From sequence record MK524177.1: 57,228 nt of DNA. One strand, 5' to 3'. This stretch comes from Escherichia phage PHB10. The notes beneath the pieces were generated by a model. The model saw only the letters and a list, made by a program, of their open reading frames with translations, was not told where the DNA came from and did not search any database. Every line of letters begins with the position of its first letter. Position 1 is the first letter of the stretch. Of the stretch, positions 4,615 through 57,228 are shown one piece after another. The position numbers and the translations under genes are program-made.

Positions 4615-4678
4615 CGATACCTCTTAACGAAAAAAGCCTCCATTATGAGAGGCATGGAATAGTGAAAGCTCTGACGGG

Positions 4679-18746: not shown

Positions 18747-19580
18747 CTATTTTGTTATCTGCTTCAGCTGCGCATCAGCCCAAGCTTCTTCGATATCAAA
18801 CTTGGTGATTAACTGATCGTAAAATGGCTTAACAGACTTCTTCCAGCTATCGAGGCTGATTGTATCTGTTATCTGACACACCGCGGCGTAAGCCTCAGTG
18901 GAAGGGATTCGTTCATACCCCCGCCCGCTGCAGCGCTTGCAATGAGCCAGAACCGGAACGCCCTGCTTTTCTGTAAGAGCTCGGTTAATGGCTTTCCCGC
19001 GTCCATGGCAATCTCTACAGGCACAACTAACGACCTTCTTGCCCTTACACTGAGGGCAGAGAACGCGCGCTATCTCCCTGACCCGTCTGCGCACCTCGTA
19101 CTCAGAAGGTCGAATATCTTCGACGCCCATGTGCAAAGACATCTTCACGAATTTCTTCTCTTTAGCCGGAGTGTGAGACTTCATGCTGAATACATCAGCG
19201 TCAATAAACCCTTCCCCATTGCAGCCATCGCACTGCTTCACGCTGGCGGCGCTGCGGGAATAGTCCTCGAACGCGAAGGTGGCCAACTGATGCATCACCA
19301 GTGGCTTAACCCCGGCATCCAGTTTGCGCAGCGCAGCCACCCGATCGCACTTGAACAGCGCATACTGGGCCAGCAATTCGATCGCCCTCTCCCGGTCATT
19401 GTTGCTGATACCCATCTTCCCGAGAAAAGCGCTGTAACCCAAAGCTGCCCGTTCCTGCGTCATGCCCATAGCGGCCATGATATCCGTCCCGGTTAAAGAG
19501 TCTGACGCCGTTGCACGCGGAGAGTCGCTAATCATCGTCGATTTGGCGAAGTGATATTTAAGGGTGTTTTCAAGATTCAT
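18747..19580 (-). CDS. late-gene antiterminator Q-like protein with four CxxCxGxG zinc-finger repeats, putative
   Basis: Position between rusA and the lysis leader; repeats [32 protein letters not shown]. Confidence 0.55.
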
Positions 19581-21944: not shown

Positions 21945-22901
21945 TCATGTATTTTCAGGACAAAGATGCCGGCAGAACCAGTCAACAACCACATTGATGA
22001 CCTCGGGTTGATACCAGTGATAATCACCATGTTCGGCGCCTTCGATAAGTACGTAGTCCGCTTTATTTCCTTCGTCCAAAAGGCCTTCGTAAAGCGTTGC
22101 GCTCTGCTTTGGTGATACTAATGTATCTTTAGTGCCATGCATTATCAGGAATGGAGGTTTGCGCCCTCTAATATGTCCTATGGGGCTTGCATTTATCGCT
22201 TTCTCAGGTGTAGAAGCGATGGATGCGCCTGGAAAGTTCCTGAAAGCAACACCATTAATTAGCAGTGATTCCGTGACCGCAGGAGACTGATGCACTTTTT
22301 GACGGTGATCAGGAAAACCATCACCTATGTTACGCAGGTCTGATATTCCGTAAAGCGTGGCCACAGCCTGCACATCAGCGGACTGGCTGAGAAAATCGCC
22401 GTGTTCGAATGATTTATCGCCATTTGTGGTACCCAGCATCTGAGCCAGCCATCCTCCAGCAGAATCGCCAAATACACCAATTCGTGAGGGGTCAATACCA
22501 TAATCGGGGGCATGTTGACGAAGGTATCTTACTGCTGCTTTAGCATCTACTATTGGTGCAGGGAAGGTATCCGGGATTGTCCTATATTCTGCCGCAGCAA
22601 CAACAAAGCCAGCCTCCGCCAGGGCCATACGCATTTCCATAAATTTGTTGTGCTCAGCCGTCATAAATCCTCCTCCAGGAAAATAGATGATGGCTGGTTT
22701 CAAAAAACTGGTACGAGGCACCAGAAAAGACATGTGTAAATGCCTGACCGAGCGAGTGCTTTTAACTGTCTCATAAACAACATCGCTGATGTTATCTATC
22801 GGGTTACGCGTCATAGCGACCTGAATAATTTCTGCTCCATGAACATAACCGGGAAGATTGTAATGATCAGAAGATACTGCGCCAGTTTGTTTAGAAATCA
22901 T
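21945..22901 (-). CDS. alpha/beta hydrolase (esterase/lipase-type)
   Basis: GDSAGG nucleophile elbow, HGTKD, oxyanion region FPGGGF. Confidence 0.8.
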   Translation of the reverse strand: MISKQTGAVSSDHYNLPGYVHGAEIIQVAMTRNPIDNISDVVYETVKSTRSVRHLHMSFLVPRTSFLKPAIIYFPGGGFMTAEHNKFMEMRMALAEAGFVVAAAEYRTIPDTFPAPIVDAKAAVRYLRQHAPDYGIDPSRIGVFGDSAGGWLAQMLGTTNGDKSFEHGDFLSQSADVQAVATLYGISDLRNIGDGFPDHRQKVHQSPAVTESLLINGVAFRNFPGASIASTPEKAINASPIGHIRGRKPPFLIMHGTKDTLVSPKQSATLYEGLLDEGNKADYVLIEGAEHGDYHWYQPEVINVVVDWFCRHLCPENT

Positions 22902-23090
22902 AAAAAGCTTCCATTGAAAACAGATCTCCGAAGAATCGAATCCTCTATAACTATATCATCCCGTACGAGTCTAGTGAGATCGGTTCTTTCCCTGTATAAC
23001 TAATATAAATATTCATTCTCAAGACTTATCCATGCAAGTACAGTATTTGTGACAAATCCTGGGAAGTGATGTTTTTTCATTCAGAAACAG

Positions 23091-23525
23091 TTACGTCATT
23101 GGATTGCTGTTATTTTTGTTATATTTCAACCTGTCTTCACGAAATCGATCCGCATTTTCGACGATCCAGGTCCATAGCGGAATCATACGAACAAGCAGTT
23201 CCATACCAGTATCAGACAGCTCGTATTCGACTCGTGGTGGAACTTCATTGAAATCATGGCGGATAACAAGGCCGTCCCGCTCAAGTTGTCGTAATGTGCG
23301 CGTCAGCATGCGCTGAGTCACTCCGTGCATACGCCTACCAATCTCAGCATGGCGTAGTCTTCCATACACGCCAAGAGTGTTGATAACACCCAATGACCAG
23401 CGACTTCCTGCATGGGTCAGCACTTCCCGCCGTAAGCCATCATCATCGTCTCTCAGCCCCTTACAAACATCCTGCGAATACTGAAGAATCTCGTCCCGAT
23501 CCATTTCACTGACTCCCGGTATCAT
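23091..23525 (-). CDS. HxlR-family winged-helix transcriptional regulator
   Basis: Motif WSLGVINTLGVYGRLRHAEIGRRMHGVTQRMLTRTLRQLERDGLV; divergent from the NmrA-like gene; start probably 23525. Confidence 0.75.
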   Translation of the reverse strand: MIPGVSEMDRDEILQYSQDVCKGLRDDDDGLRREVLTHAGSRWSLGVINTLGVYGRLRHAEIGRRMHGVTQRMLTRTLRQLERDGLVIRHDFNEVPPRVEYELSDTGMELLVRMIPLWTWIVENADRFREDRLKYNKNNSNPMT

Positions 23526-23594
23526 ACATGTACCTTCTTTTTTAGCCTGTTGTGAATTGCTAGAGTGGCGCAACAATTCATGTAAGGCCAGATT

Positions 23595-24545
23595 ATGAAC
23601 AAAATTGATCTTAACACTACGTCTGAAAATATCCTCGTGCTCGGTGCCGGTGAGCTGGGCCTCCCCGTTCTGCGAAATCTTGCCCTTCGGGCAAAAGATT
23701 TGAAGGGAACAAAAATCAGCGTGCTGTTGCGCGAAAGTACCTTAACTTCAGATGAACCTGGAAAAAAATTAGTTCTCAAGGAAATCAGAAACCTCGGTAT
23801 TAATATTGTCACAGGTGATCTCGTCATGAGTTCTGTCGACGATTTGGCCAGCCTCTTTGCGCAATTTGACACAGTCGTTGGCTGCACGGGGTACGCGGCT
23901 GGAATAAATACACCGATGAAACTGGCGCAGGCGGCTCTGCAGGCGCGGATTCCACGATATTTTCCATGGCAGTTTGGTGCCGATTTTGATGCCATCGGAC
24001 GCGGCAGTCCACAAGACATCTTCGACGCGCAGATTGACGTGCGTGATTTACTACGCAGCCAGCATGAAACCGAGTGGGTCATCATTTCGACCGGCATCTT
24101 CATGAGCTATTTGTTCGAACCAGACTTCGGTGTGGTCGATCTACAGAACGATACTGTTCACGCACTCGGCAGTATTGACAACACCATGACGCTGACAACA
24201 CCGGATGATATCGGGATGCTAACGGCAGCGATTGTATTTAACACTCCTCGCATTCGGAACGAAATTGTATATATCGCCGGTGATACACTGACCTACGCAG
24301 ATGTGGCAGATAAGCTGCAATCAGCGCTTGGCCGTCCTTTCAGCTGCACGGAATGGAGCGAACAACATCTGATGGATAAACTGGCGCTCAACCCGCAAGA
24401 CATGATGTCTAAGTATCGTGCCGTTTTTGCACAGGGGCGGGGAGTTGCTTGGGATAAAAAGCAGACATTCAATGAACGCCATAACATTCCGGTTACCGAT
24501 GTGGCAGCCTGGATTAATGCAAACCTGATCCCAGGCAGCTCATGA
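23595..24545 (+). CDS. NmrA-family NAD(P)-binding oxidoreductase
   Basis: N-terminal Rossmann motif VLGAGELG; typical HxlR/NmrA divergent pair. Confidence 0.75.
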   Translation: MNKIDLNTTSENILVLGAGELGLPVLRNLALRAKDLKGTKISVLLRESTLTSDEPGKKLVLKEIRNLGINIVTGDLVMSSVDDLASLFAQFDTVVGCTGYAAGINTPMKLAQAALQARIPRYFPWQFGADFDAIGRGSPQDIFDAQIDVRDLLRSQHETEWVIISTGIFMSYLFEPDFGVVDLQNDTVHALGSIDNTMTLTTPDDIGMLTAAIVFNTPRIRNEIVYIAGDTLTYADVADKLQSALGRPFSCTEWSEQHLMDKLALNPQDMMSKYRAVFAQGRGVAWDKKQTFNERHNIPVTDVAAWINANLIPGSS

Positions 24546-24652
24546 TAGACGTATTTAGGCTGCTGTAATAAATACCAGAGTCTTTCTCCTGCCTACCCGA
24601 ATAGGTGATGAGAAAGACTCTGTTCCCCCTGTTGGCACTGATAGTAAAGCGG

Positions 24653-25513
24653 TTAAGCTGTGTGAGCTGAAAACCGGCTCTCCGGTAAACCGGGGAATAC
24701 GGCTGATTTCGCTCTTAGCAGCGCTCCATCATGCCTTGACGGCACAGAAAGACCCACGCTGGCACTAGTACAATACAGCGTTGTGAATGCTTCTCCCGCG
24801 AGTGTCGGGCAAGTGCTCTGAATTCCTGGGGAGGGCAGGATACGATCCGTCGTTCCGTCCGGACGATAACGTACAACACGGCTTCCTCCCCATTCGGCAT
24901 TCCAGATATAGCCCATTGCGTCCACGCAGGAGCCGTCAGGCGCCCCCTTTCCCTCTGTTGCAGTGAACACACGCTGGTTATTCATAGTGGGATAATCACA
25001 GCACAATATACGGCCCTGCATCGAGTCACAGTAATACATCGTGCTGCCGTCCGGACTGAAGCAGATGCTGTTCGGGATGGACACCTCAGGCAGGGGTAGC
25101 GTTTCAATGCTGAGTGTCGCTGCATTTAGCCTGTGAAATTTTCCGATGACTTTCGCGGGGTACCCGTCATCCATGGTCCCGAAGACGAAATTACCCTCAC
25201 GGTCGCACCGACCATCCCCTGTCCGTGTTCCCGGCCCTCCCGGTGACCCCACTACCGGTGTAAAGATACCCGTATTCAGATCGCAGAAGGCGAATCTGGA
25301 CGCCAGCCCCATCAGTAAAACGTCAGAATTTTCAGTAAGTGCAAACGATCCGAGGCGCTCAGGCAGCGACCAGCGCATCACAACACCGGTATCTTCTTCA
25401 AGGGCAAGCAGCTCGCTGCCTTCAATGTCAGTCCAATAAATCCTGCGAGTCCTCTCGCACCAGATTGGGCACTCTCCAAGCAAATTTCTGGTATCAGCAG
25501 CCACTGAAAACAT
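24653..25513 (-). CDS. SMP-30/gluconolactonase/LRE-family protein
   Basis: Beta-propeller-like repeats (GECPIW, DxxG motifs); start MFSVAADT at 25513 with GGGAGA SD. Confidence 0.75.
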   Translation of the reverse strand: MFSVAADTRNLLGECPIWCERTRRIYWTDIEGSELLALEEDTGVVMRWSLPERLGSFALTENSDVLLMGLASRFAFCDLNTGIFTPVVGSPGGPGTRTGDGRCDREGNFVFGTMDDGYPAKVIGKFHRLNAATLSIETLPLPEVSIPNSICFSPDGSTMYYCDSMQGRILCCDYPTMNNQRVFTATEGKGAPDGSCVDAMGYIWNAEWGGSRVVRYRPDGTTDRILPSPGIQSTCPTLAGEAFTTLYCTSASVGLSVPSRHDGALLRAKSAVFPGLPESRFSAHTA

Positions 25514-25611
25514 GTTATTTCTCCCGCATATAAAAGTTTCGCATCGCCTGAACAATAGCTTACGGCCATCTGCACTATGGCAGAGCGCCGTAAGGAGCAT
25601 TCCCCACCCTG

Positions 25612-26085
25612 TCAGGGCAAAAAACGCGCTGAAAGTTTGTCACCAAAAAGCATGATGGCGAGTCCTGCCAGCATGACCAGCATGCCCCCCAGTTTGAGCA
25701 GCGAAACCGGTCGCCTAACAGCACCCAGCAGACCGAAATGGTCAATCATTTGCGACGAGAGTAACTGCCCAACGATTGCCAGCCCTAGCAGAGCTGAAAA
25801 ACCGATTTTCGGTGCCAGCACTACGTAGCTGAATAACGCACAGGCACCGATCAGACCGCCCGCCAGACTCCACGCAGGCTGCGAAGGAATAGCAGCGAGA
25901 GAGGTAAATAACCCTCCACGAAGCAGCGAGTAAATCCCGAGACTCAACGCCCCGGCCGTAAATGAGAAGAATGCGGCGGTAACCGGGTCCCCCCCGAGTC
26001 CTTTTGCAAGCTGACTGTTCAGGGTCGTCTGCAGAGTAATACCAAGACCCGCTGCAAAAGCTATTACGTAATAAATCGCGCTCAT
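25612..26085 (-). CDS. small DMT-superfamily membrane transporter, putative
   Basis: 157 aa, four to five hydrophobic helices. Confidence 0.65.
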   Translation of the reverse strand: MSAIYYVIAFAAGLGITLQTTLNSQLAKGLGGDPVTAAFFSFTAGALSLGIYSLLRGGLFTSLAAIPSQPAWSLAGGLIGACALFSYVVLAPKIGFSALLGLAIVGQLLSSQMIDHFGLLGAVRRPVSLLKLGGMLVMLAGLAIMLFGDKLSARFLP

Positions 26086-26099
26086 GCTGTTTTTCCCTG

Positions 26100-27497
26100 T
26101 CAGTTTGCCTGTACCAGCGGCAGAAATTTCTCCGCAAAGATGTCCGGCTCATACCCGGCGGCAGCAAAAAGGTGTTCGCGTGATTCATCGATGGCAGCAC
26201 GAAGACGCTCGCTGTCCACGCCCAGAACTTTACCGTTCTTCTTGACGATGCGCCCGCCAATCATAACGGTATCGATGTTGCTGCGTTCAGTTGCATGCAC
26301 CACCGTCCCGAAGGCATTCCCGTTCGGGTAGAGATTGAGATCAGCAGCATTAATCAGGATCAGGTCGGCCTGTTTTCCTGGCGTCAGGCTACCCACTTTA
26401 TCCTGTAGCCCGGCACAGGTCGCACCATCGACGGTCGCCGACTTCAGCAGTTGCGCTGCCGGGAGCGTTGTTATTGAATGCCCTGAATCACAGCAGTGCT
26501 GCTTATGCATACCCATTACTCGCTGCAGATAGAACGCCACGCGCATTTCCATAAACATATCTGTGCTGTAAGACGTTTCGTTATCCACGCTCAGGCCAGG
26601 ATTGATGCCATGGCGCTGTGCGGCCTCAATGGCAAACATCCCGCTTTCAATGCCATAGTGCGAATCTGAGCGCGGACAGACGTTCACCCGTACGCCGGCT
26701 TCACGCAGGATTTCCCAGCCCTCATCAGGTAGTGCGGTACAGTGGTTGAAGATATTGTCCGGGCCAAGCAGACCCTGCCGATGCAGAGATTCAAGCTCGG
26801 AGGCCATCTCAGCACCAAAGAATTCGGTCACGATCGGCAACCCCAGCCTGCGCGCTTCAGCCCATAATTCTGGCTCCAGCTGAGCCATAACCCCCAAAGT
26901 CACAAGACCCTCTGGGTTATCCCTGAAATACTTTTCCTGCAGACGCTGCCAGTTACCTGGCCAATGTGCACGATCCCATTCACCCGCAACCGGTGCGCCG
27001 GAAGCATGAATGGCGCGAATGCCGCTATCAAGCAGAGCCTCGACTGCAGCGTCGGAATGCGCTGCGGTACGGCTGTTATGCGAGTTATCGATCATCGTAG
27101 TGATACCCGCGTCAATCGCGCCCAGCGCCGTCAGCAGGTTGCCGACATAGATATCTTCAGGACGGTAATATTTAGCGAACGAAAAGTGCGTGGCGTTGCT
27201 GTAGTCGTCCAGACAGGTGGCGTTGGGGTTGATGCGGCGTAGCTGACCTTCCCAGGCGTGACGATGAGAATCAACCATCCCAGGCATGGCAATCATATTT
27301 TTGGCATCAATAACACGAGCACCTGGCGCGTCAAGGTTCTGACCAACGGCGGTAATGATTGAGCCGTTGATGAGAATGTCACCGCGCTCAATATTACCGA
27401 CGCTATCGTCCATACTCAGTATGGTTGCGCCGCGAATCAGCGTTACCGGCGGGTTTTCCGTCTGTTTCTTAACAATATTTCTGTTGTAATTGGTCAT
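26100..27497 (-). CDS. amidohydrolase-family metal-dependent hydrolase (deaminase-like)
   Basis: 465 aa with metal-binding motif MPGMVDSHRHAWEGQ and conserved downstream His/Asp residues. Confidence 0.8.
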   Translation of the reverse strand: MTNYNRNIVKKQTENPPVTLIRGATILSMDDSVGNIERGDILINGSIITAVGQNLDAPGARVIDAKNMIAMPGMVDSHRHAWEGQLRRINPNATCLDDYSNATHFSFAKYYRPEDIYVGNLLTALGAIDAGITTMIDNSHNSRTAAHSDAAVEALLDSGIRAIHASGAPVAGEWDRAHWPGNWQRLQEKYFRDNPEGLVTLGVMAQLEPELWAEARRLGLPIVTEFFGAEMASELESLHRQGLLGPDNIFNHCTALPDEGWEILREAGVRVNVCPRSDSHYGIESGMFAIEAAQRHGINPGLSVDNETSYSTDMFMEMRVAFYLQRVMGMHKQHCCDSGHSITTLPAAQLLKSATVDGATCAGLQDKVGSLTPGKQADLILINAADLNLYPNGNAFGTVVHATERSNIDTVMIGGRIVKKNGKVLGVDSERLRAAIDESREHLFAAAGYEPDIFAEKFLPLVQAN

Positions 27498-27639
27498 TGT
27501 AATCGTCTCTTTCAGATTAAGAAGGAAAACGATACGCCTCCCGATTAAGATGAAAAAGATGACTAACGTGTTTTCATAATTCAGAATTAACGAATAATAA
27601 TGGTTAACAACTTTACACGATATTCAGGAGAGCAGTCAG

Positions 27640-28527
27640 GTGGATCGCATTCAGGCTATGCAGGTTTTTTTAAGGGTGGCTGAAGCCGGAAGCTTTGTCA
27701 GGGCAGCGGAAACACTGTCCCTGCCTTCCTCTACTGTTACCAGCACCATCAAAAACTTGGAGAAATATCTGCAGGTGCGTCTGCTCAACCGGACCACAAG
27801 GAGGGTCAGCCTTACGTCTGAAGGTCTGCAATACCTGGCGCAATGCAGGGAAATCCTTGCCTTAATTGAACATACTGAAGCCAGTCTGGCTGATTCGAAC
27901 AAGCGCCCCCGGGGCCGCTTACGCGTTGATATGCCCGGCGGTATAGCCCATTTCATCGTTATGCCAAATCTGAAAGAATTCTACAGCCGGTATCCTGATA
28001 TTTACCTGATGATCGGTGTCAGTGACCGGCAAGTTGATCTGGTTCAGGAGGGTGTGGATTGCGTGATCAGAACCGGAGATTTGCTTAGCTCAACACTTGT
28101 TGCCCGTCCGCTTGGGCAGTTCCGCTGGATCACCTGCGCCTCTCCCGAATATCTCAGAAAGTATGGTATTCCACAGTCACCTCAGGATTTATCTCATCAC
28201 AGGGCTATTCATTATTTTTCAGGGCAAAACCGACGTACAGACGAATTGCGTTTTGTACATGGAACAGAAACGCTGTCTGTATCCGTCAGCGGGCAGGCAG
28301 CCGTCAATGAGACGGGACTCTATATAAAAATGTGCCTCGAAGGGTTCGGACTGGCGCAGCTTGCTGAAAACGTTGTAGCAGAACACCTGCAAAAAGGAAC
28401 ACTGGTTGAAGTCCTGGCCGACTGGCAGCCGTCGTCTGTTCCTGTCACTTTGCTTTATCCCCATCAGCGTTTTCTTTCACCCGCCGTACGCGCATTTGCA
28501 GACTGGGTAGATGAAATCTTTAGTTGA
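27640..28527 (+). CDS. LysR-family transcriptional regulator
   Basis: N-terminal HTH (MQVFLRVAEAGSFVRAAETLSLPSSTVTSTIKNLEKYL) and LysR substrate-binding domain. Confidence 0.85.
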   Translation: MDRIQAMQVFLRVAEAGSFVRAAETLSLPSSTVTSTIKNLEKYLQVRLLNRTTRRVSLTSEGLQYLAQCREILALIEHTEASLADSNKRPRGRLRVDMPGGIAHFIVMPNLKEFYSRYPDIYLMIGVSDRQVDLVQEGVDCVIRTGDLLSSTLVARPLGQFRWITCASPEYLRKYGIPQSPQDLSHHRAIHYFSGQNRRTDELRFVHGTETLSVSVSGQAAVNETGLYIKMCLEGFGLAQLAENVVAEHLQKGTLVEVLADWQPSSVPVTLLYPHQRFLSPAVRAFADWVDEIFS

Positions 28528-28725
28528 TATGTCTGTTACAGCCACCCGAGCACATTAAAAGTCAGCAGTATTCAGGATACCTGGCAGGACGGCAGGCTTT
28601 GCTTCGCGGATGCGTCCATTCCGGAACGGCGGCTTCACAGGTAAAGAGCTGTACCCAAAAATTCAATTCTCCGTTTTAAAAGTAACGCCTCCGGCTAAGA
28701 ACCCCAGCCGCATCCGGGGCCTCTT

Positions 28726-29619
28726 TTAACTGAAATGTCTGAGTAAAATATCTTCAAGGATGTGAAAAACGGTCCTGATGCGTTGCGGTACAAGGGTCTG
28801 ATAGGGCCGGTAAAGATAAAGCTGCCAGGTTTCCAGTTTTAGTTCCGGTAAAACATTCACCAGCCTGCCGTCTTCGAGATATTCCCTGCAGGCCAGATTA
28901 CTCGACTGGATCACTACTTTACCGGCTAATGCAGCCTGAATCTCAGACTGGGAGTCGGTAGTAATAAATTCAAGATGTCGTGGTACAAAAGTATCGACGC
29001 CATCGAGCATATATTCGAATACTTTGCCGGTATCAGGATTCAACAGGCCACTGAAAGGATAGCGCTGGCGCAGATCGTCGAAATTTTCCGGCGCACCCAG
29101 CCGCTCAATGAGCCCGGGAGATGCCATCAGCGCGTGATGAACAAGCGTAATGGGCCTGATAATAAAGTTCGGATTTGGCTCCCGCTCAATACGGATCCCC
29201 ATGTCAATGCGGTTCTGAACAGTATCCAGCTTCATCATGTCCAGCCGCCAGTCTATAAACAGCTCAGGATAAGGACGAAGCGCATTCAGAAGCTCATAGA
29301 GTACCTGTTCGTGCCCGGGAAAGCGAAACAGGGTGATCCTCACAATCCCCTTCATCTCATTGTCATCTCTGGCCGTTTGAAACAGGGCCTCTGAATCCTC
29401 AAGCAAACGAAGGGCCCCCGGCAGGAAGAGCTCACCAAAGCTGGTCAGCACAATAGATCGGGTATTCCGCTTAAAAAGTGGCTCGCCGAGCTGATTTTCC
29501 AGTTCAGCAATAGTGCGCGTCACCACTGAAGGAGAAATGGCCAGTCTGACCGCTGCTTCACGAAAATTCATCGTTTCTGCAGCGGCAACAAAAAATTTCA
29601 GCGCATCTAGTTTATTCAT
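28726..29619 (-). CDS. LysR-family transcriptional regulator
   Basis: HTH LDALKFFVAAAETMNFREAAVRLAISPSVVTRTIAELE; divergent from the AKR operon; start probably 29619. Confidence 0.85.
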   Translation of the reverse strand: MNKLDALKFFVAAAETMNFREAAVRLAISPSVVTRTIAELENQLGEPLFKRNTRSIVLTSFGELFLPGALRLLEDSEALFQTARDDNEMKGIVRITLFRFPGHEQVLYELLNALRPYPELFIDWRLDMMKLDTVQNRIDMGIRIEREPNPNFIIRPITLVHHALMASPGLIERLGAPENFDDLRQRYPFSGLLNPDTGKVFEYMLDGVDTFVPRHLEFITTDSQSEIQAALAGKVVIQSSNLACREYLEDGRLVNVLPELKLETWQLYLYRPYQTLVPQRIRTVFHILEDILLRHFS

Positions 29620-29736
29620 GATTGTTGTTTTTTTAGCAATTCTGACTTTCAAAATTAACAATTTTTATGCAACAAATCCAGCCATATACTTAACCGCTCT
29701 AAAACATCACTGAGTTAAGAAAAGTCAGGATTCACT

Positions 29737-30702
<966 letters not shown>

Positions 30703-45550: not shown

Positions 45551-45926
45551 ACATCGTTATTTCAGCCTTCACCATCTCAAAATGCTGCGATCGTGAAAAC
45601 TGCGAAAGAAAATCATGAGGCACATCAGTAAATATTGTATCATTTGCTAAGCATTGCTGTTACATTCGGTTTAATGATGAATCCTCCTAAGCGGCAGGGC
45701 TAATTAACCTGATGATTTGTATATCAAGCGGCTCATCGTGAATTTCTGAAGCAGCGAGTCACGAGTGGTTAGGTCAATGACTCACCGGGAGGCACCCGGC
45801 ATCATATCCGTAAGCCCCTGTATAATTGCAGGGGCTTATTTACATTACAAAAGCATAGTCTTAGACATATTACTGTTAATACTCATAGCCGATAATTAGG
45901 CTCGAATGAATAGACCGTTTAAAGAA

Positions 45927-47195
45927 TCATCTAACTTTTATTAGGTCTGAATACCTCGTAGTATATCGTGGAGATAACATATCCCGTTTCATCTGCCACT
46001 GCTGCTGTATGCCCTGCCCGGCAAAGTAAAGCGTTCCTTTTCCATCTTTCGCGTTCAAGTGATCGAGCACCTCCATCAACTTATCGCTTCCTGCGCGTGG
46101 AGCGTTCTCATCGAAAAGGTTCAACTGCGCCACCCCTTGGCTGAAAAAATCTCCCAGCATGATTCCAGCCTTTTGATAGCGATAGCCATCCTTCCAGATT
46201 TTGTCCAGGCACTTTACCGCGGCGTTGATTATGTCGCGGGAATCCTGTGTAGGGGTGAGAAGCTTCATGGACGCGCTGTTACCGTAATATGGCTCGTTAA
46301 GCGCAAAGGGAGAGGTTTTCACGAACGCAGAAATAAAGCGGCAGTACTGATGCTCTCCCCGCAACTTTTCTGCGCCTCGGGCCGCATAACTGCAAATGGC
46401 CTGCCTCATTTGTTCGTAATCAGTGACGCGTTCACCGAATGACCTGCTACAGACGATCTCCTGCTTTGCCGGCGCAAATTCCTCCAGCTCGAGACAGGGC
46501 TCGCCGCGCAGCTCCCGGACAGTTCGCTCCAGGACGACATTAAAGTGTTTGCGGATAATCCACGTGCTTTGTTCAGAAAGGTCCAGAGCTGTTTTGATGC
46601 CCATGGCATTCAGCTTCTTACTGATGCGCCTGCCTACGCCCCATACATCTTCTACTGGCACGATGTCGAGCAATCGGCGCTGGCGGTCGATATTGGATAA
46701 ATCAACTACCCCTCCCGTTTGCCGCTGCCATTTCTTCGCGGCGTGGTTGGCCAGCTTGGCCAGTGTCTTTGTCTGGGCAATTCCAATCCCGACAGTCAGG
46801 TGCGTCCGCTTCAGAACGGTAGCGCGGATTTCTTTGCCGAACTCAGTAAGATCCCGGCAATTGCGAACACCTGTTAGGTCACAAAATGCTTCATCGATAC
46901 TGTAAATTTCTACGCGAGGGCTCAACTCCTCCAGTGTGGTCATTACTCGATTCGACATGTCTGCGTACAGCTCGTAGTTACTGCTGAAGCAAACAACCCC
47001 AGCGCGCCGAAATAAGTCCTTTTGCTTGAAGAAAGGCTCTCCCATTGTAATTCCAGCCGCCTTGGCCTCGGCGCTGCGCGCGATTACGCAGCCGTCATTG
47101 TTCGAAAGAACAACCACTGGCCGCCCTTTCAAATCGGGACGAAACACCGTCTCGCATGATGCGTAGAACGAATTCACGTCGCAGAGCGCAAACAT
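45927..47195 (-). CDS. umuC: translesion DNA polymerase V catalytic subunit UmuC
   Basis: Y-family polymerase N-terminus [15 protein letters not shown]; 422 aa; directly downstream of umuD. Confidence 0.9.
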
Positions 47196-47197
47196 AC

Positions 47198-47617
47198 TCA
47201 GCTCGCCGATTTGACGATGAAAGTAACAACGCCGAAAACGTCCAGCGTATCTTCGCTGCCTACAACAATCGGACTGTAGGCGCTATTCATTGGGATGAGT
47301 TGGACATTTGGACGCAACTGCAAACGCTTAACAGTGAATTCCCCTTCAACCGCGGCGATGACAATGTCACCGTGCTCAGCCGTGCGCGAACTATCCACCA
47401 CCAGCAGATCACCGTCGCTTATCCCGGCTTCGATCATTGAATCCCCCGCGGCTTTGACGAAATATGTAGAGCTCGGGTGAGCGACAAGTAACTCATTGAG
47501 ATCGATACGCTGTTCAACGTAATCAGCTGCGGGGCTTGGGAAACCACACTGTACTAAGTCACTGAAAAGCGGAAGAGCGATAATATCTCGCAGTTCTGTT
47601 GGCCTGATGAATTCCAT
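47198..47617 (-). CDS. umuD: UmuD (LexA-like S24 peptidase, polymerase V accessory subunit)
   Basis: 139 aa from MEFIRP; Ser-Lys dyad context (AAGDSM ... VKRL). Confidence 0.9.
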
Positions 47618-47632
47618 TGCACACACCTCAAA

Positions 47633-47652
47633 TACTGTTTTTATATACAGTA
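47633..47652 (-). promoter_or_regulatory. LexA (SOS) box upstream of umuDC
   Basis: TACTGTTTTTATATACAGTA fits CTGT-N8-ACAG, 16 nt upstream of the umuD start. Confidence 0.8.
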
Positions 47653-47858
47653 GTTTTATTTGTAAGTGTCCGCAAGATACAGGCCCTATCGTCACTGCTT
47701 AAAGCTTCGCCGTTTCGTTTCTAAGTTTATCTCTCGTTTCGAATTATCTCTTTTGTAAATTTTTCAATAATGGCGCAGATGTAAGCAGATTTGAGGGAGA
47801 CAAAGCCCGTTAAATGCCAGAACGGGCTGCGACTGAAAGCTAAGTCTTCATGATTCCG

Positions 47859-50490: not shown

Positions 50491-50789
50491 GCATTCTCCA
50501 CGAAGACCACCAGTTCACATTCCGAGGCCGGATAATTACCAATACCAACTTCGCTGGCAGTGCTGAGAGTGATGGTGTTCCCGTTAGCGATAATGCGTCG
50601 ACCCACCGAGACCGCGCCCTTATCAAGGGACACCGCAAATCCGACCTTCATCCCCGCCGGAATGGTAAAGGACCAGTTGCCCGAGGTTTGCCCCTCGGAA
50701 AGCTGAATACGCCCTACCACTGATACGGGTTTGATACCGTAGTTGTTCGGGATGCCGTTGGCGTCCCAGGTCTGAATACCCCAGGCCAT
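50487..50789 (-). CDS. tail-associated protein of unknown function
   Basis: 100 aa; start overlaps the J stop. Confidence 0.4.
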   Translation of the reverse strand: MAWGIQTWDANGIPNNYGIKPVSVVGRIQLSEGQTSGNWSFTIPAGMKVGFAVSLDKGAVSVGRRIIANGNTITLSTASEVGIGNYPASECELVVFVENA

Positions 50790-53700
50790 TAAAACACTCC
50801 TGTAAGTTTGCCTATCTGAACACGGAGCCTGTTAGCATCCCGAATGCTGATGGTGACGTTAGTCTGCTTCATGCCTCCGGAACTGTCGCTCCCGTAGTTC
50901 TGCATCGTTCCGTCTTTACCCCAGCGCCAGCCAGCGCTTCCGGCAACATAATTATTAGACTGCAGAGAATCCGTAATTTTACCGAACTGGATACTCGCAT
51001 CACGGAAGAACGCATCATTGATGAATGTCTGCCCGTTCTGGATAACAAATGGCAAAGAAACAGTGCTGCCAGCTTGGGAGGTAACGGCAAAACGGTCGGC
51101 CAGGAAGATAACCTGTGACTGCATCCCTGATGGCGTATTCTCCACCCCGATCCCCATTCCTGCAGCGTAATACTGGCCATTACTCGTTACCCCAACTTTG
51201 ATGTTGTACATCGCGCTGAGCTGGCCGTTTACGTTCGCAATGGCCTGGGCGTTCGTGGTGATAGAGGCAGTATGTCCATTGACTGTCGCCGTAATAGCAT
51301 TTATCTGCGTGGCTGTAGACTGCTGATAATTCGAAACCGTATCGCTCAGGCTGTTGATGGATGCCGTATTACCGTTGACGTTCGTTTGCAGACTCAGCAA
51401 TGCGCGTGCCGTTGCCTCCCTGTCATTGACGATCACCTCATCAATGCGGTCTAGCTGCGCGCTGTTACCGGCAACCGAAGCCGACAGGGTTTTACGTGTG
51501 GCCACCTGAGCGAGGTTGGCCTGGATTATCGCAATTGCCGAGTTCTTCACGCCTCCTGTCATGCCGTCCATCGAAACAGAAATCTCGTCTATCTTCACTT
51601 CGGCCTGCGCCAGCCCGTCAGCGTTCTCCTGGATGTCTTTCGCCTGCTGCTCGAGCTCGTCGGCATGCTTTTTAATGTCATCCGCCATGCCTGCAACTTT
51701 TTCGTTGCTGTCCACTGCGTTCTCGATCAGGTCTTTGAAGGTATCAGAGTCTTTCATTCCCTCCAGAATCACATCGGTGATGTCAGAAACATCGATACTT
51801 GCCTGTCCTCGCACCCATTCTGTGTACCCTGATTCGTTGCCGCTGCGGTCCACCAGCTGCGCGCGGTACCAGAAAATCTGCTCAGCCTTAAGGCCCATCT
51901 GCTGATATTTGCGCTGCGGGTAAGGCACATCGGCCAGCAGCATCGCATCTTCTTCGGTACCAGTCAGGCTGTACTGAATTTCCGTCTTCAGCGTGTCGTC
52001 GGTATTCGCCGGGAATCCCCAGTTGAGCTCGATACCGAATACCACGCTTTCAGAAGCGATGAAGCCAACCGGCTTCGGTGGATTGCCCACTTTACCCGTC
52101 AGCGTTTTCTCTTCTGAATAGCCCCAGCCTGACGAAATTTCGGCAGCATTGATGGCGCGCACGCGCACCAGGTAGCGCCCGGCATAAATCCCCGGGACGT
52201 CGAATGATGTGGTGGAGCTGCGCGGCACGTTAACCCAGTTCCCGTCGTTGCGGCGCCATTGCGCTTCATAGGCGATAGCGTTCTGCGCCTGGTCCCAGCT
52301 CACGCGCATCGTTTCGACACTGATATTTTGCTGCACCACAGAAAACGAGCTGATGACGATGTTCGCAGGCGGCGACTGGTTGCCCGGCGGGATCACGCTC
52401 ACCGGCCGCTGGTCAATGATGGCTCCGGTATCAATGCGATCGAATTTATCCGGATCGTGATTTGCACCGACGATTGTGAACGTGCCGTCATTATTATCAG
52501 TTACTGTAATAACGCGATACTGCTGTGCGTAGAGCTCATCAGACTCAATGACCCATACGGCCTCGGCCTGTGGAAGCTCGCTAAAGGCGGTTGTCACGGT
52601 AACCATTCCACCTGACAGGGACTGAATCGTCCGGGATTGGGTAATACCCGACGGCAGGTTTACCATTATCCTGTCACCGGCCTTAGCACTTGGCACCCGG
52701 TCAAGTTTGAGTACACGACCATTAACCGCGGATAATCGACCGCCTAAATCTCGGCCAGAGAGATTTCGGTCAGCGACAGCAATTATGTAGCCAGGCTGAG
52801 GAATATTGCCGTCCAGACCAACGTCAAACGTTACAATCCTATCTTTATTGTTGGTCAGGATCCCCCAGCGCCCTTTCCTGTTAGCCTCAGATTGCCGGGT
52901 GCATCCGATAGCGGTGATCTCAAGCTGGTTGAAACCATAGCGCGCCACCAGAGCCTGCTCGAAGACGGGCTCCATTGCGTCAGCATAGCCATTTGCCGGA
53001 TCCGACCAGGAAACAAGAGCGTTTGTGTAGCGACTTTTAGTTGTGCTACTGGAATACACAAATTTGCCGTCAACTACGTTAGCGTGCGTGTAGGTAAAAT
53101 CGACATCTCTGGGCATGTCTGCAAGGGCAACAATCTGGTCGTCTCCCCAGTAGGTCATACCTCGAAAAATGGCGGCAAAGTCTCGCAGCACAGTGTAAGC
53201 GTCATTTCGATCTTGAATGTATACGTTGCAGGTGTAACGCGGTTCAGTTCCGCTCCCCCCCTTACCATCCGGTACCAGTTGATCACAATACTGAGCGACC
53301 TGATAAAGGGTCCATTTATCAATATTGGCTGCTGTTAGCCGATTACCAAGGCCGAAGCGGTCAGTGACTACCAGATCGTAAAATATCCACGCAGGGTTAT
53401 CCGTCCATGCCCACTTAAATGCTCCCGTCCAGGTGCCGCTGTACGTTCGTGTTTCTGGGTCATAGGTATCGGGCACACGAATAACACGCCCGCGGGGCTC
53501 GCAAGAAATTTGCGGAATTGAGCCATTGAACTGGCTCGAATCAAATTCGATGTACAGTAGCGCGGTGTTCGGATAGCGCAATTTGGCGTCGATTACTTCT
53601 GTGAAGCTTTGCAGCGTCATCGTGTCGCCAATCTTAGCGCTATTTGCGTCTGCGGTAATCTTGCGCAGCCTGATGGTCCAGGTGCTGCCCGCCTGAGGTA

Positions 53701-54238
53701 AATCAATACGGTGGCTGCGTTCATAACCAGAGGTGGTTTTCCCGGTCACGCTGGTATTTAGCACCGTCTGCCAGGTACCGCCATCTGTCTGCAGGTCAAA
53801 TGCGTAGTTGACCGAATAGCCAACCAGATCGCCATCGTCCTCCTGTTTGAAGAGAGAAGGCCATTTTAGACGCAGGCGAACAGCTGAAAGCTGCGTATTG
53901 GTGAACGTGCGCGTCCACGCTGTAGAGCTGGAAACTTCGGAACCTACATTGATTTCATTTTCGGTACCTGGGATCCCTTGAATGTATTTTTGCGCCTGAG
54001 TTCCAGAACGAAACTCCCACGCCACGCCGCTGAAGTTCTGTGAACCATCTGCGTTCTCAAGTGCGGTGCCATCGAGATAAATATCGCGCGCAGTAAGTCC
54101 ACCAGCAAACTCCCCCTCTCCCAGCGCGAGAAGGATTTTTGCCTTGGCAACTGACTGCAGGTCGTCTGGCTGTTCTGTAGGAGTTCTTGAGCTTGAACTG
54201 CCGCCCTTGCGGCCTTTAATAGCGGTTGCTATAGCCAT
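50789..54238 (-). CDS. host specificity / central tail fibre protein J
   Basis: 1149 aa; lambda J-like length, composition and position after I. Confidence 0.9.
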   Translation of the reverse strand: MAIATAIKGRKGGSSSSRTPTEQPDDLQSVAKAKILLALGEGEFAGGLTARDIYLDGTALENADGSQNFSGVAWEFRSGTQAQKYIQGIPGTENEINVGSEVSSSTAWTRTFTNTQLSAVRLRLKWPSLFKQEDDGDLVGYSVNYAFDLQTDGGTWQTVLNTSVTGKTTSGYERSHRIDLPQAGSTWTIRLRKITADANSAKIGDTMTLQSFTEVIDAKLRYPNTALLYIEFDSSQFNGSIPQISCEPRGRVIRVPDTYDPETRTYSGTWTGAFKWAWTDNPAWIFYDLVVTDRFGLGNRLTAANIDKWTLYQVAQYCDQLVPDGKGGSGTEPRYTCNVYIQDRNDAYTVLRDFAAIFRGMTYWGDDQIVALADMPRDVDFTYTHANVVDGKFVYSSSTTKSRYTNALVSWSDPANGYADAMEPVFEQALVARYGFNQLEITAIGCTRQSEANRKGRWGILTNNKDRIVTFDVGLDGNIPQPGYIIAVADRNLSGRDLGGRLSAVNGRVLKLDRVPSAKAGDRIMVNLPSGITQSRTIQSLSGGMVTVTTAFSELPQAEAVWVIESDELYAQQYRVITVTDNNDGTFTIVGANHDPDKFDRIDTGAIIDQRPVSVIPPGNQSPPANIVISSFSVVQQNISVETMRVSWDQAQNAIAYEAQWRRNDGNWVNVPRSSTTSFDVPGIYAGRYLVRVRAINAAEISSGWGYSEEKTLTGKVGNPPKPVGFIASESVVFGIELNWGFPANTDDTLKTEIQYSLTGTEEDAMLLADVPYPQRKYQQMGLKAEQIFWYRAQLVDRSGNESGYTEWVRGQASIDVSDITDVILEGMKDSDTFKDLIENAVDSNEKVAGMADDIKKHADELEQQAKDIQENADGLAQAEVKIDEISVSMDGMTGGVKNSAIAIIQANLAQVATRKTLSASVAGNSAQLDRIDEVIVNDREATARALLSLQTNVNGNTASINSLSDTVSNYQQSTATQINAITATVNGHTASITTNAQAIANVNGQLSAMYNIKVGVTSNGQYYAAGMGIGVENTPSGMQSQVIFLADRFAVTSQAGSTVSLPFVIQNGQTFINDAFFRDASIQFGKITDSLQSNNYVAGSAGWRWGKDGTMQNYGSDSSGGMKQTNVTISIRDANRLRVQIGKLTGVF

Positions 54239-54245
54239 ATTGCGC

Positions 54246-54270
54246 CCATAAAAAAAGCCACCGGGAGGTG
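54246..54270 (-). terminator. intrinsic terminator-like hairpin between I and J
   Basis: gccacc-tccc-ggtggc followed on the minus strand by U7, 10 nt upstream of the J start. Confidence 0.45.
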
Positions 54271-54288
54271 GCTTGTTGATAAATCTAT

Positions 54289-54891
54289 TTACTGTTGGTC
54301 TTCTACATAGATACCGGCGGAGATGATCGCGCCACCTATACGGCGCCGTCCGTACAAGAGTGGTACCGGATTGCCCTGAGCTGTCGTATTTGTTACTCCA
54401 CCAAAGGCATAACTGGCCTTGTTGTCTGCCGATTGCTTGCTGGCAAGTCCGGTTGTCTGTGGAGAAAGCATTTGAACGACACCGCCAAGGGCCATCGCAG
54501 CGCCAAATTGCATTAGAGGAACGCCGACAGCACCACCGCCAAAGTATGACGCCACAGCACCAACTGCGACCAAAGCCACACCTAAGATGGTCTGGAATAC
54601 TCCACCACGTTTACTCCCGAGGATAACCGGCGCGATACGGATATCAGCGGTACTCTGATCCATAGAGAGTTCATCATCGTTCAGGTTACGCTTACCGCTG
54701 AATACAGCGTAAGTAAGCCCACGCTGCTTGCTGGTATTCAAAAACCGCTCGAAGCCTGGCACTATAACGCACAATGCACGGATGGCTTCTTTAGGCGAAG
54801 CAACAGAAAGTTTGAATTCACGACCAAATGTTGAGCCAAGTATTCCATAGAGGCGTATGGTTCTCATCGGCTGACCAGTTAAAAATGTCAT
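54289..54891 (-). CDS. tail assembly protein I
   Basis: Lambda gpI-like; likely start MTFLTGQ at 54891 with GGAGG SD. Confidence 0.8.
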   Translation of the reverse strand: MTFLTGQPMRTIRLYGILGSTFGREFKLSVASPKEAIRALCVIVPGFERFLNTSKQRGLTYAVFSGKRNLNDDELSMDQSTADIRIAPVILGSKRGGVFQTILGVALVAVGAVASYFGGGAVGVPLMQFGAAMALGGVVQMLSPQTTGLASKQSADNKASYAFGGVTNTTAQGNPVPLLYGRRRIGGAIISAGIYVEDQQ

Positions 54892-54985
54892 ACATGCCTC
54901 CAAAGTCTCTCTTGACTAAGAGAGACTATTAATGTTGATAGACTTTTTGATGTTTTTAACACGCAATCCAAGAATTCAAATCAAC

Positions 54986-55597
54986 TTACTTATTTTTGGC
55001 TGACGGATTAGCAACTTCTGGGTGTTTTTTATTGAATTCTATAAAGCTACTTGGGCATTCCTTTGAAAGTAAATAATAATTTACTAAACATGCATCCGCC
55101 TTAGCTTCATCGCTCGAATGATACACACCATCTGCCAAAGATAATGTCGGAGCTAAATACCTGGCTTTAATCAACTCTTGCCCCAACGCCAAAGCATCCT
55201 TAGAAGTAGCTGCTGAACAAGACGTAACAGCACCGTCAAATAACGTCTTATTACCTTTGCAATTTAAGGACGCATCTAAGAAGGACTCGTGTAAATCGGT
55301 GCGCACTTGAATAAATGCAGGATCAGTAATATTTGAACCAGCCAAGATCCCTATCAGACCTAACCCACCTCCGATTGTAGCAATGGCTGAACCATTGGCG
55401 AGGTTCAAATCTCCCCATACCAACCATCGCAACAGGAAAAAACTCACTGCTACGGACGTTATCAAATATCCAAACCCAGTCCATAGATTGTGACTGTGCC
55501 CGAAGAAACTCAAGCATGCAAGCCCGACCCCAACGACAAATGGAACGCAGACAACGACCATTTTAATATAAAAATTATTCAAGTTGACAAATGCCAC
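54986..55597 (-). CDS. membrane protein of unknown function (moron inserted between K and I)
   Basis: About 3 N-terminal TM helices plus soluble C-terminal domain; AT-rich by eye; lambda K and I are adjacent; start uncertain (GTG 55597 or ATG 55561). Confidence 0.5.
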   Translation of the reverse strand: MAFVNLNNFYIKMVVVCVPFVVGVGLACLSFFGHSHNLWTGFGYLITSVAVSFFLLRWLVWGDLNLANGSAIATIGGGLGLIGILAGSNITDPAFIQVRTDLHESFLDASLNCKGNKTLFDGAVTSCSAATSKDALALGQELIKARYLAPTLSLADGVYHSSDEAKADACLVNYYLLSKECPSSFIEFNKKHPEVANPSAKNK

Positions 55598-55633
55598 ATT
55601 AATATCCGTTAATGAAGTAAGTTGGGCTCATTA

Positions 55634-56347
55634 TTATATAAACTTCGATTGATGGCGAAGGATTTTGTTTGTCCTCTCACGCCAATATCCACCATATGGC
55701 ACACGCTGGCTTAAATGACCGTAAAGATGATGAAGTAAGATATCACCTTCAAGCAATATGCCGGCATGGTTCCACTTGTTAGACTGAACTTGCATGATCA
55801 CCATATCCCCCGGTTGCAGCGGCCCGTCGAATTCACGGAAACCACACTCATACCAGCAATCCTGATAGAAATTGTCCAGATAGCAGTCCTCCCACCACGG
55901 ATAATCAACACGGTAATCTTTCAATTCGATACCATGTTCCTGCCTGTAATAGCTCATCACCAGTCCCCAACAGTCATAGTGTCCAAGCACAAACGGCCGC
56001 CCGATCAGTGGCAAATCACCGCGGGGAGTGATGGTGCGAAAGTCGCCTTCCGGCCAACTGACAATATGCCAGGGCAGCAACGTTGCATCGCATTGAGCCT
56101 TGTCCAGTTCGCTTGGTTGGGTTGTCGCGTCAGGGTGACTATGTACGATTCCCGTTATCGTCCCCCAGTCTTCAGCAGCGGCGTAATCCTCTGGTGAAAG
56201 GTGAAACTGTTCCGTTGGTTCAGCAGCCAGATTACGGCATGGAAAATAGCGTTCCACCCGGCTTTTCTGCGCTATCACGCCGCAGCATTCGTGGGGATAG
56301 TCTTTCGCAGCATGTGACAGGATGTCCTGAATTGTTTTCTGACGCAT
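55634..56347 (-). CDS. tail assembly protein K (JAB/MPN plus NlpC/P60 domains)
   Basis: JAMM motif HSHPDATTQPSELD and NlpC/P60-like Cys in YDCWGLV. Confidence 0.85.
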   Translation of the reverse strand: MRQKTIQDILSHAAKDYPHECCGVIAQKSRVERYFPCRNLAAEPTEQFHLSPEDYAAAEDWGTITGIVHSHPDATTQPSELDKAQCDATLLPWHIVSWPEGDFRTITPRGDLPLIGRPFVLGHYDCWGLVMSYYRQEHGIELKDYRVDYPWWEDCYLDNFYQDCWYECGFREFDGPLQPGDMVIMQVQSNKWNHAGILLEGDILLHHLYGHLSQRVPYGGYWRERTNKILRHQSKFI

Positions 56348-56348
56348 G

Positions 56349-57104
56349 TTAACTCCTGATCAAAGATGTTCCCGGAAAACCACCGAAAGGAAGTTCATTG
56401 TGTTCACCAAACCGAAGCTTGCAGGCGGTGAGCGTGCCGTTGCATTCATCCAATGAGGGATCGCTTACCGGATTGTTGTTTCTGTCGAAGTAAAGCGTGC
56501 CGGCATAATCGCACCCATCGCCGGTGCGGTACCTATTCCGGATGCACCATGTGCAAAGGGAATGCAACTGTCTGGTCGGAATCATCAATCCCTGCAGATC
56601 CATCGGGCTGGTAAGAACAAACTCGATACTTTCACCGGGAAGCTCACTATTTTTACCGTCGATATAGAAAACCCGCTTCCTCACCTGCAAGGGATCTGCT
56701 GTTGGATTTCCATCCGAGAAATTGCGCGCATCCAGGTAATGCGCAAAAGTGTCATGAATCGTAACTTTGGCCTGCAGCATATCGTCATAGGCCAGACAGA
56801 GCGCAGTGATAGAGCTGTCAATGTTGGCGACGGTGAGCGTCGGCTGGGCGCTACTGCCATCGGTTGACGCTTCCAGTCCCTCGAGCTTATATGGCCAGGC
56901 ACCATACTCTTCGCCCTGCCACCAGATACTCTTCGCCTTTAACTTTGATTCGTCGCCGCCAGCAGCCGCAATCTCTTCTTCAGTATGCGGGAGGTTATAA
57001 GCGTGAAAGCGCAGAACGTCGTCCAGACCAAACGCAGAACCGTCTACCTCAAGAAGACGTATTTTTTCACCCGGTTCGAGGTGTTGATAATCTTCAGTAA
57101 TCAT
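56349..57104 (-). CDS. minor tail protein L
   Basis: 251 aa with C-terminal Cys cluster CTWC...C...C as in lambda gpL; start overlaps the M stop (ATGA). Confidence 0.85.
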   Translation of the reverse strand: MITEDYQHLEPGEKIRLLEVDGSAFGLDDVLRFHAYNLPHTEEEIAAAGGDESKLKAKSIWWQGEEYGAWPYKLEGLEASTDGSSAQPTLTVANIDSSITALCLAYDDMLQAKVTIHDTFAHYLDARNFSDGNPTADPLQVRKRVFYIDGKNSELPGESIEFVLTSPMDLQGLMIPTRQLHSLCTWCIRNRYRTGDGCDYAGTLYFDRNNNPVSDPSLDECNGTLTACKLRFGEHNELPFGGFPGTSLIRS

Positions 57105-57228
57105 GGTGCGTATGCCTGTTTGAAGGTTGCTTTTATAGTCATCACTTTGCTGGATAGCGGCTGGACTTTAATGGAATCAGCTTCAATCCGGTATAAACCG
57201 GTTTCGCCGACAGGAGACGTCCAGATAA
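57105..57228 (-). CDS. minor tail protein M, C-terminal portion (gene start lies beyond window end)
   Basis: Open frame ...IWTSPVGETGLYRIEADSIKVQPLSSKVMTIKATFKQAYAP* ending at TGA overlapping the L start; resembles the lambda gpM C-terminus as I recall it. Confidence 0.6.

Follow-up and report, generated by a model that had tools for sequence, protein, structure and literature searches.

The genome record of Escherichia phage PHB10 (MK524177.1), whose full 57,228 nucleotides (nt) are referred to below as the window, carries an uncharacterized open reading frame (ORF) between the tail genes K and I, which we call ORF-X. Comparison of this junction across related loci leaves us highly confident that ORF-X is an accessory gene, or moron, and no part of the tail. 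The best explanation of the locus as a whole, which we put forward tentatively, is that an acquired moron cassette with expression of its own encodes an inner-membrane exclusion protein. In kind, ORF-X appears to be a classical moron in the sense of Juhala et al. (2000; as summarized in PMC3594210), at a site already known to hold gp20 of HK022, and no existing concept is overturned by the cassette. The family to which its protein belongs has no name, and the analysis yielded, as a useful by-product, the range of cargo carried at the K-I junction.

Insertion at the K-I junction

On the minus strand of the window the gene order is L, K, ORF-X, I, J, with ORF-X at 54986-55597 (203 amino acids [aa], GTG start). 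The initial annotation proposed, from the sequence of the window alone, that an AT-rich gene at these positions is a moron inserted between K and I. The composition of the region agrees with this proposal: guanine-plus-cytosine (GC) content drops to 0.33-0.45 over 54800-55700, against about 0.50-0.56 in the flanks (about 0.52 for the neighboring genes), and is 0.40 for the cassette compared to 0.50 for K. K of PHB10 shares 84% identity with its counterparts in HK022, mEp235 and N15, and in N15 the K and I genes overlap with no insert. IMG/VR by itself returned at least 598 hits for K-I junctions. We fetched 80 IMG/VR loci in which K was at least 82% identical and placed I by tblastn in 79 of them; these 79 loci were not dereplicated, and the junction counts are descriptive only. 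Eighteen junctions were without insert, K and I abutting or overlapping (gap of -1 or -4), 13 held relatives of ORF-X, and the remaining 48 held unrelated inserts of 309-2501 bp, all of them low in GC (0.33-0.47, compared to 0.48-0.58 for K). ORF-X is an extra gene between genes that adjoin one another in N15 and in 18 of the 79 related loci, the insertion was confirmed, and the moron reading of the initial annotation found good support.

Since ORF-X lies inside the tail-tip gene block, it might instead be a component of tail assembly or structure, or else a spurious ORF in junk DNA. We regard both of these alternatives as effectively refuted. Relatives do not keep the gene as a fixed structural part of the tail: the family was found in 13 of the 79 junctions and was missing from the other 66, it matches no PHROG tail family, its product is an integral membrane protein, and it also occurs outside tail clusters. 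The presence of homologues at the ends of P2-like prophages (discussed below) likewise indicates that ORF-X is not a tail component. With respect to a spurious ORF, conserved cysteines and a ratio of nonsynonymous to synonymous substitution rates (dN/dS) of 0.08-0.46 identify a real, selected protein.

The nearest empty sites (K 89% and I 95% identical) allowed the edges of the insert to be placed. At these sites the K stop overlaps the I ATG, the sequence reading ...CAGGAGGGATAATGTGC..., and I has its ribosome-binding site within K. Homology of K to the empty-site K stops near an RH(Q/K)S motif, and the first ~8 codons of I differ from those of the empty-site I (MCESVRTVRLYG versus MTFLTGQPMRTIRLYG). 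As judged from the alignment, the last ~8 codons of K together with its stop are the left boundary of the insert, and the first ~8 codons of I belong to the other boundary. This comparison thus indicates that the cassette replaced the last few codons of K and the first ~8 of I, and brought a new Shine-Dalgarno (SD) sequence. We propose that a horizontally acquired cassette fills the K-I junction, a cargo hotspot of the HK022/N15-like tail-tip module, where it would take the place of the overlapping joint between K stop and I start. In PHB10, the SD sequence of I (GGAGG, 54901-54897) is followed, 5 nt further on, by the ATG at 54891; a mechanical ORF call that begins I at TTG 54903 is unlikely, and the GGAGG-spaced ATG is preferred. 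A megablast search with the region gave no match, either among phages or in E. coli genomes.

The unrelated inserts consist mostly of genes for lipoproteins with lipoboxes or for small membrane proteins. Further cargo includes an 8xMP family protein, DUF4760, a YecR-like lipoprotein, and a SocA/Panacea antitoxin with a partner gene, while one insert encodes a protein judged KilA-N-like by eye from sequence alone, followed by a lipoprotein. At least a dozen unrelated cargo types were seen at the junction (IMG/VR loci L027-L099), and many of the lipoprotein cassettes share a joint in which CTGTGCTAA is followed by CCTTT..AAAGG..ATGAAAAA, a small hairpin directly after the K stop. In a limited literature search we found no account of the K-I junction as a hotspot, and nothing useful on 8xMP or DUF4760. 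In HK022/N15-like tails, the K-I junction is a rich site of exchange for envelope and defense cargo, and as such a practical hunting ground for superinfection-exclusion and defense genes in prophages of Enterobacter, Citrobacter and E. coli; genes of this sort bear on the host range of phages used in therapy.

The known occupant of the site invites direct comparison. HK022 and HK446 carry, between K and I, a 74-aa gene with one transmembrane (TM) helix (HK022 gp20) and an annotated rho-independent terminator. This gene, which is also present in mEp235 and others, resembles ORF-X in its identical site, its AT-richness, its small membrane protein product, and the hairpin or terminator that precedes the ribosome-binding site of I. 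The two are nevertheless unrelated: gp20 has 74 aa and one TM helix, whereas ORF-X has 203 aa and, as predicted below, three TM helices with a periplasmic domain. Likewise, gp20 has a strong SD and a canonical terminator, in contrast to the weak SD, GTG start and U-tract-free hairpin of ORF-X.

Additional genes were observed near ORF-X in some relatives. An unannotated 188-aa gene lies between I and J in L001 (6104-6670) and L006 (5122-5688), and an unannotated 135-aa gene lies between ORF-X and I in L100 (6747-7154), which suggests a second insertion point and stacked cargo. In L003 (4888-7333; Enterobacter cloacae GCA_050618135.1), the called genes pass from a Gp13-like capsid-region gene straight to ORF-X, I and J, with ~130 nt of the 3' end of K upstream of ORF-X and no tail genes called between. 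On the basis of these gene calls, L003 looks like a degraded prophage that kept the cassette.

The ORF-X protein family

ORF-X matched no family in Pfam (E<=0.1), PHROGs, PADLOC (no PADLOC-DB defense model at E<=10) or NCBIfam, and 25 family members compared to Pfam and PHROGs gave scattered single-member noise only. Similarly, tblastn of ORF-X and of a distant homologue (P0006) against 50,697 phage records found no match, a profile search of PDB sequences gave a best E value of 0.18, which is noise, and fold searches recovered only generic helix bundles. A word-indexed search identified four clusters only, 98-60% identical to ORF-X and all between K and I; their named sources are Enterobacter bugandensis and E. 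cloacae. An exhaustive HMMER search returned 29 representatives of the same length that are 25-39% identical. Every named member of the family is annotated as a hypothetical protein.

The genomic contexts of these relatives fall both inside and outside tail clusters. Relatives that are 31-60% identical share the K-I position; they come from Enterobacter, a metagenome contig (P0005) and Citrobacter (P0008). Those that are ~30% identical lie at the extreme end of P2-like prophages of Brenneria and Yersinia, beside ogr and convergent with it. The host flanks differ between Brenneria and Yersinia, and in the Yersinia-family loci of this type the ORF-X homologue comes after the host ihfA terminator. 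Other homologues reside beside a DUF4224 gene, or in an element with an integrase and ImmA.

ORF-X contains three hydrophobic segments, which begin near residues 4, 38 and 69, and these take the place of an N-terminal signal sequence followed by a lipobox (L-x-G/A-C), of which there is none. An AlphaFold model built with a 25-sequence family alignment displayed helices at 3-32, 38-61 and 66-87, and then a helical C-terminal domain of ~115 aa, with a mean predicted local distance difference test score (pLDDT) of 86.8. Hydrophobicity and model agree with the earlier expectation of about three TM helices and a soluble C-terminal domain. Two cysteines, C127 and C170, are invariant across the family, while C113 and C181 occur only as a pair, which 16 members have and 9 lack. 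The N-terminal segment averages 1.3 K/R versus 0.2 D/E across the family. This charge bias and the co-occurrence of the cysteines point to a periplasmic, disulfide-bonded domain, with two inferred disulfides, C127-C170 and C113-C181. Taken together, ORF-X probably sits in the inner membrane by three TM helices, its N-terminus facing the cytoplasm and its C-terminal domain the periplasm. It adds an uncharacterized family with testable features, namely the three TM helices and the periplasmic domain with its two predicted disulfides.

The dN/dS of ORF-X was 0.08-0.26 when measured against distant relatives and ~0.46 against close ones; by this measure ORF-X is a genuine protein under purifying selection that evolves fairly fast. 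We rejected an internal ATG (M13) as the true start, since the 60%-identical homologue has Ile at this position and residues 2-12 are conserved.

Putative expression signals of the cassette

A consensus scan identified a putative promoter-like element over the K stop (55630-55658, minus strand), TCGCCA-17-AATAAT, with its -35 at 55658-55653 and its -10 at 55635-55630; the 9/12 match is not above chance in the region. We compared 10 ORF-X loci, which represent four subtypes, to 29 other loci (5 empty and 24 with other cargo). The motif TCG(T/C)CA-17-(A/G)ATAAT was present in all 10 of the ORF-X loci and in none of the 29 others, and both the spacers and the K tails have diverged among the four subtypes that share it. 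At loci free of the motif, the Arg codon in the K tail is often AGG or AGA, not CGY. The exclusivity of the motif to ORF-X loci is suggestive of a promoter belonging to the cassette. For the P2-context homologues, a strict consensus scan, which is insensitive, found no upstream promoter. ORF-X itself starts at a GTG with a weak SD. Close relatives keep the GTGGCA at this start, as does the 60%-identical homologue; in the more divergent subtypes the GTG or ATG stands in another context. ORF-X is flanked by a perfect 10-nt inverted repeat (54982-54991/55615-55624), with one arm in the 5' leader and the other at the stop codon; we rejected it as a 5'-3' pairing element, as it is at chance level in 1.1 kb and not conserved in relatives.

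The initial annotation had described the insert as bounded by a perfect palindrome with 8-nt arms. The hairpin is indeed perfect and lies exactly at 54904-54927 (minus strand), between the stop of ORF-X and the ribosome-binding site of I. However, pairing extends two bases further into the presumed loop from either side, so that the structure has a 10-bp stem and a 4-nt loop (AGTCTCTCTT-AGTC-AAGAGAGACT on the coding strand; folding energy -13.4 kcal/mol) rather than an 8+8 form, and it bounds one side of the insert, the other side being without it. We counted perfect stems of at least 10 bp in the whole 57-kb window and in shuffled sequence. The window contains 3, versus a mean of 0.5 in the shuffles, and all 3 are located directly 3' of accessory genes, namely ORF-X, an Ivy homologue and umuC.

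Behind the stem of the ORF-X hairpin there are only two unpaired U, and then the GGAGG of I. Differences in the stem among relatives include a compensatory change of T-A to C-G in L006 and L049, with a C.A intermediate in L003, L004 and L005. In more divergent ORF-X subtypes, canonical GC stems with T-runs occupy this position, immediately ahead of the GGAG of I, as exemplified by GCGCCCATC-TTAGTC-GATGGGC followed by T8, and folding energies are comparable between the hairpin and these terminators (-12 to -16 kcal/mol). These comparisons favor reading the hairpin as an intrinsic terminator of the cassette that is weak or has decayed; it may also act as a 3' stabilizer. An Rfam scan of 54700-55800 gave no match.

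The gap between I and J contains a strong, canonical intrinsic terminator (54255-54274, minus strand; 8-bp stem with 5 GC pairs, then T7), nearly identical versions of which are found at the I-J junctions of HK446 and N15 (a putative terminator in the N15 annotation). From its sequence, this element would stop read-through from the cassette in a lysogen. The similarity among these phages takes in the terminator plus the TTTTTTTATGGGCGCAATATGGCTA joint before J, and HK446 has a very similar terminator/ribosome-binding-site joint after its HK022-type gp20 moron, before I; such joints lie at 4327-4350 in L008 and at ~4662-4680 and 4001-4023 in L007. These terminator-ribosome-binding-site linkers may be recombination joints that make the sites swappable.

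Lambdoid late transcription under Q ignores terminators, and a Q antiterminator is encoded in the window at 18747-19580. We propose that the cassette supplies a sigma-70-like promoter over the K stop, a weakly initiated GTG gene, the hairpin, and a new SD and N-terminus for I. In a lysogen, ORF-X would be transcribed on its own, and its transcript would end at the hairpin or else at the I-J terminator. During lytic growth, Q-antiterminated late transcription would be expected to pass both the hairpin and the I-J terminator.

Candidate functions and other cargo of the window

Morons are where temperate phages keep genes that alter the phenotype of the bacterial host. The function that we consider most plausible for ORF-X, although we would rate it somewhat below even odds, is superinfection exclusion at the inner membrane. 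This suggestion is based on the architecture of the protein, its site near genes for entry specificity, the company it keeps in the hotspot, and the precedents of HK97 gp15, P22 SieA and the lipoproteins (Lpp) of the mEpimmI phages. According to this proposal, the periplasmic domain would block either the DNA-delivery machinery of an incoming phage or a host inner-membrane factor that the phage needs.

HK97 gp15, the first-described moron, is a small, YebO-like inner-membrane superinfection exclusion protein of the tail operon that is expressed by the prophage and blocks DNA entry without masking the receptor (PMC3594210). ORF-X resembles gp15 in being a tail-operon moron of the same phage group with an inner-membrane product, and differs from it in site, as gp15 lies between the genes for the tail chaperone and the tape measure. 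ORF-X matched neither YebO nor any other Pfam family at the threshold given above, and the 25 members had no Pfam family in common. P22 SieA is a ~160-aa inner-membrane exclusion protein with three predicted TM helices, encoded beside ejection-protein genes (PMC10883804). As with ORF-X, it is a 3-TM inner-membrane protein with an uncertain start codon that adjoins DNA-delivery genes, which are those it blocks, and SieA has its own promoter. In contrast to ORF-X, its translation reads as an N-terminal hydrophobic stretch, a long polar stretch and C-terminal hydrophobic stretches with no cysteines, and sieA is transcribed opposite to the late genes. Homology to SieA was rejected, since hhalign of family profile A2 gave a probability of 1.2% over 6 aligned columns. 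Lipoprotein genes in the structural clusters of mEpimmI phages mediate exclusion (PMC11893012). Cor/Llp and mEpimmI Lpp are small envelope proteins whose genes lie among or next to tail genes, and they exclude phages that use the same receptor. Lipoproteins are the commonest cargo of the K-I site, where ORF-X sits. Unlike these proteins, ORF-X is a polytopic inner-membrane protein with no signal peptide or lipobox, and is therefore unlikely to mask an outer-membrane receptor.

A bolder proposal, which we view as rather doubtful, is that ORF-X represents a new and widespread Gammaproteobacteria family of prophage-borne inner-membrane exclusion proteins, carried by lambdoid and P2-like phages, in which three TM helices and a disulfide-locked periplasmic domain impose a block to translocation unlike that of gp15, SieA or Imm. 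If ORF-X does found such an exclusion family, the K-I junction would be a previously unexploited hotspot for entry-blocking genes.

The company of ORF-X in the hotspot can also be read differently. Since the K-I site holds defense-type membrane families (8xMP, DUF4760) and a Panacea-antitoxin pair as well, ORF-X might be a single-gene membrane defense or abortive-infection effector that senses infection and then depolarizes or permeabilizes the inner membrane, with no block to entry. The movement of the ORF-X family between mobile elements would suit such an effector, as would its weak GTG start, which suggests a need for low expression. We nevertheless consider this function unlikely, as ORF-X had no PADLOC match and has no partner gene, and a periplasm-facing disulfide domain fits an entry block better than it fits an intracellular sensor.

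Several observations weigh against reading ORF-X as an independently expressed exclusion cassette. One homologue resides among ordinary chromosomal and metabolic genes of Pseudomonas chlororaphis, with no phage context. ORF-X co-occurs with differing I and J types and is also found in P2-like phages, and thus is not matched to one tail type. The promoter-like match of just 9/12 lies inside the K coding sequence and is linked to the cassette, and the constant spacing of the motif could derive in part from a constraint on K length and from shared descent. Close relatives have A UGGAGG right behind the hairpin stem, the U-tract being absent, and the U-tract-poor hairpin of the PHB10 clade may be non-terminating. 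Finally, ORF-X is co-directional with the late operon, which is compatible with late-only expression.

The P. chlororaphis homologue is in keeping with lysogenic conversion that benefits the host in ways unrelated to phages, such as immunity to pore-forming bacteriocins, tolerance of envelope stress, or host interaction. PHB10 carries other cargo of this sort, including an Ivy lysozyme-inhibitor homologue, umuDC-like genes and metabolic enzymes, and the 3-TM architecture is similar to that of some colicin immunity proteins. However, ORF-X lacks sequence or fold similarity to any such family, and its recurrence in a tail-tip hotspot alongside lipoproteins favors a phage-related role; we judge a host benefit to be about as unlikely as the defense effector.

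A further alternative is that ORF-X is a late-only lytic accessory gene, which might alter the envelope as the cell dies, help release, or stop progeny from re-adsorbing or injecting, in which case the hairpin would be an mRNA-processing or stability element that tunes expression of I. In favor of this alternative are the shared orientation with the late operon, the lack of a U-tract behind the hairpin in close relatives, and the position of the hairpin, which abuts the SD of I. The lipoprotein cargo in many sister loci begins ~30 nt past the K stop, which would likewise be in keeping with late-only expression. On the other hand, the promoter-like motif is specific to ORF-X loci, the P2-like members are isolated transcription units convergent with ogr, and other ORF-X subtypes carry genuine terminators. 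We accordingly regard late-only expression as improbable, more so than either the defense effector or the host benefit, and retain exclusion by a cassette with its own expression as the preferred reading.

The genes around ORF-X are tail genes by homology, all on the minus strand. L (56349-57104) matches Pfam Phage_tail_L (7e-80), and the tail tip gene K (55634-56347) encodes JAB and NlpC/P60 domains (Pfam Prok-JAB 1e-19, NLPC_P60 2e-19; phrog_30 1e-130). The tail gene I (54289-54891) matches phrog_32 (3e-77) and, weakly, Pfam Lambda_tail_I, and J (50789-54238) is the central tail fiber gene, a 1149-aa ORF; J-homologous loci carry Pfam FNIII-A_GpJ, Phage-tail_3 and Phage_Tail_Tip. The window has the appearance of a complete lambdoid genome in circular permutation, with its ends falling inside tail gene M (1-400 and 56830-57228). 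The N-terminal part of M is at the window start and its C-terminal part at the window end, in different frames, and some 70 nt that would join the two are missing. Single copies of Q, O, an exoVIII-like gene, an integrase gene, head genes and tail genes are present.

Other accessory genes occur elsewhere in the window. Between the lysis and terminase regions, the minus strand encodes an Ivy homologue (inhibitor of vertebrate lysozyme; Pfam 1.6e-19) at 14588-15082, and a perfect 13-bp hairpin (14547-14580) directly follows it; the two make up a further moron-like cassette that may have a role in host interaction. Between O and Q, a metabolic-looking block (21945-30702) encodes a BD-FAE/alpha-beta hydrolase, an amidohydrolase and an aldo/keto reductase, and is unusually large and non-phage-like for a nin-type region. 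A umuC-like translesion-polymerase gene (45927-47195; Pfam IMS domains) lies downstream of the tail fiber genes, with a perfect 10-bp hairpin (45811-45838) behind it. The adjacent ORF at 47198-47695 could, as a candidate by position, be its umuD partner.
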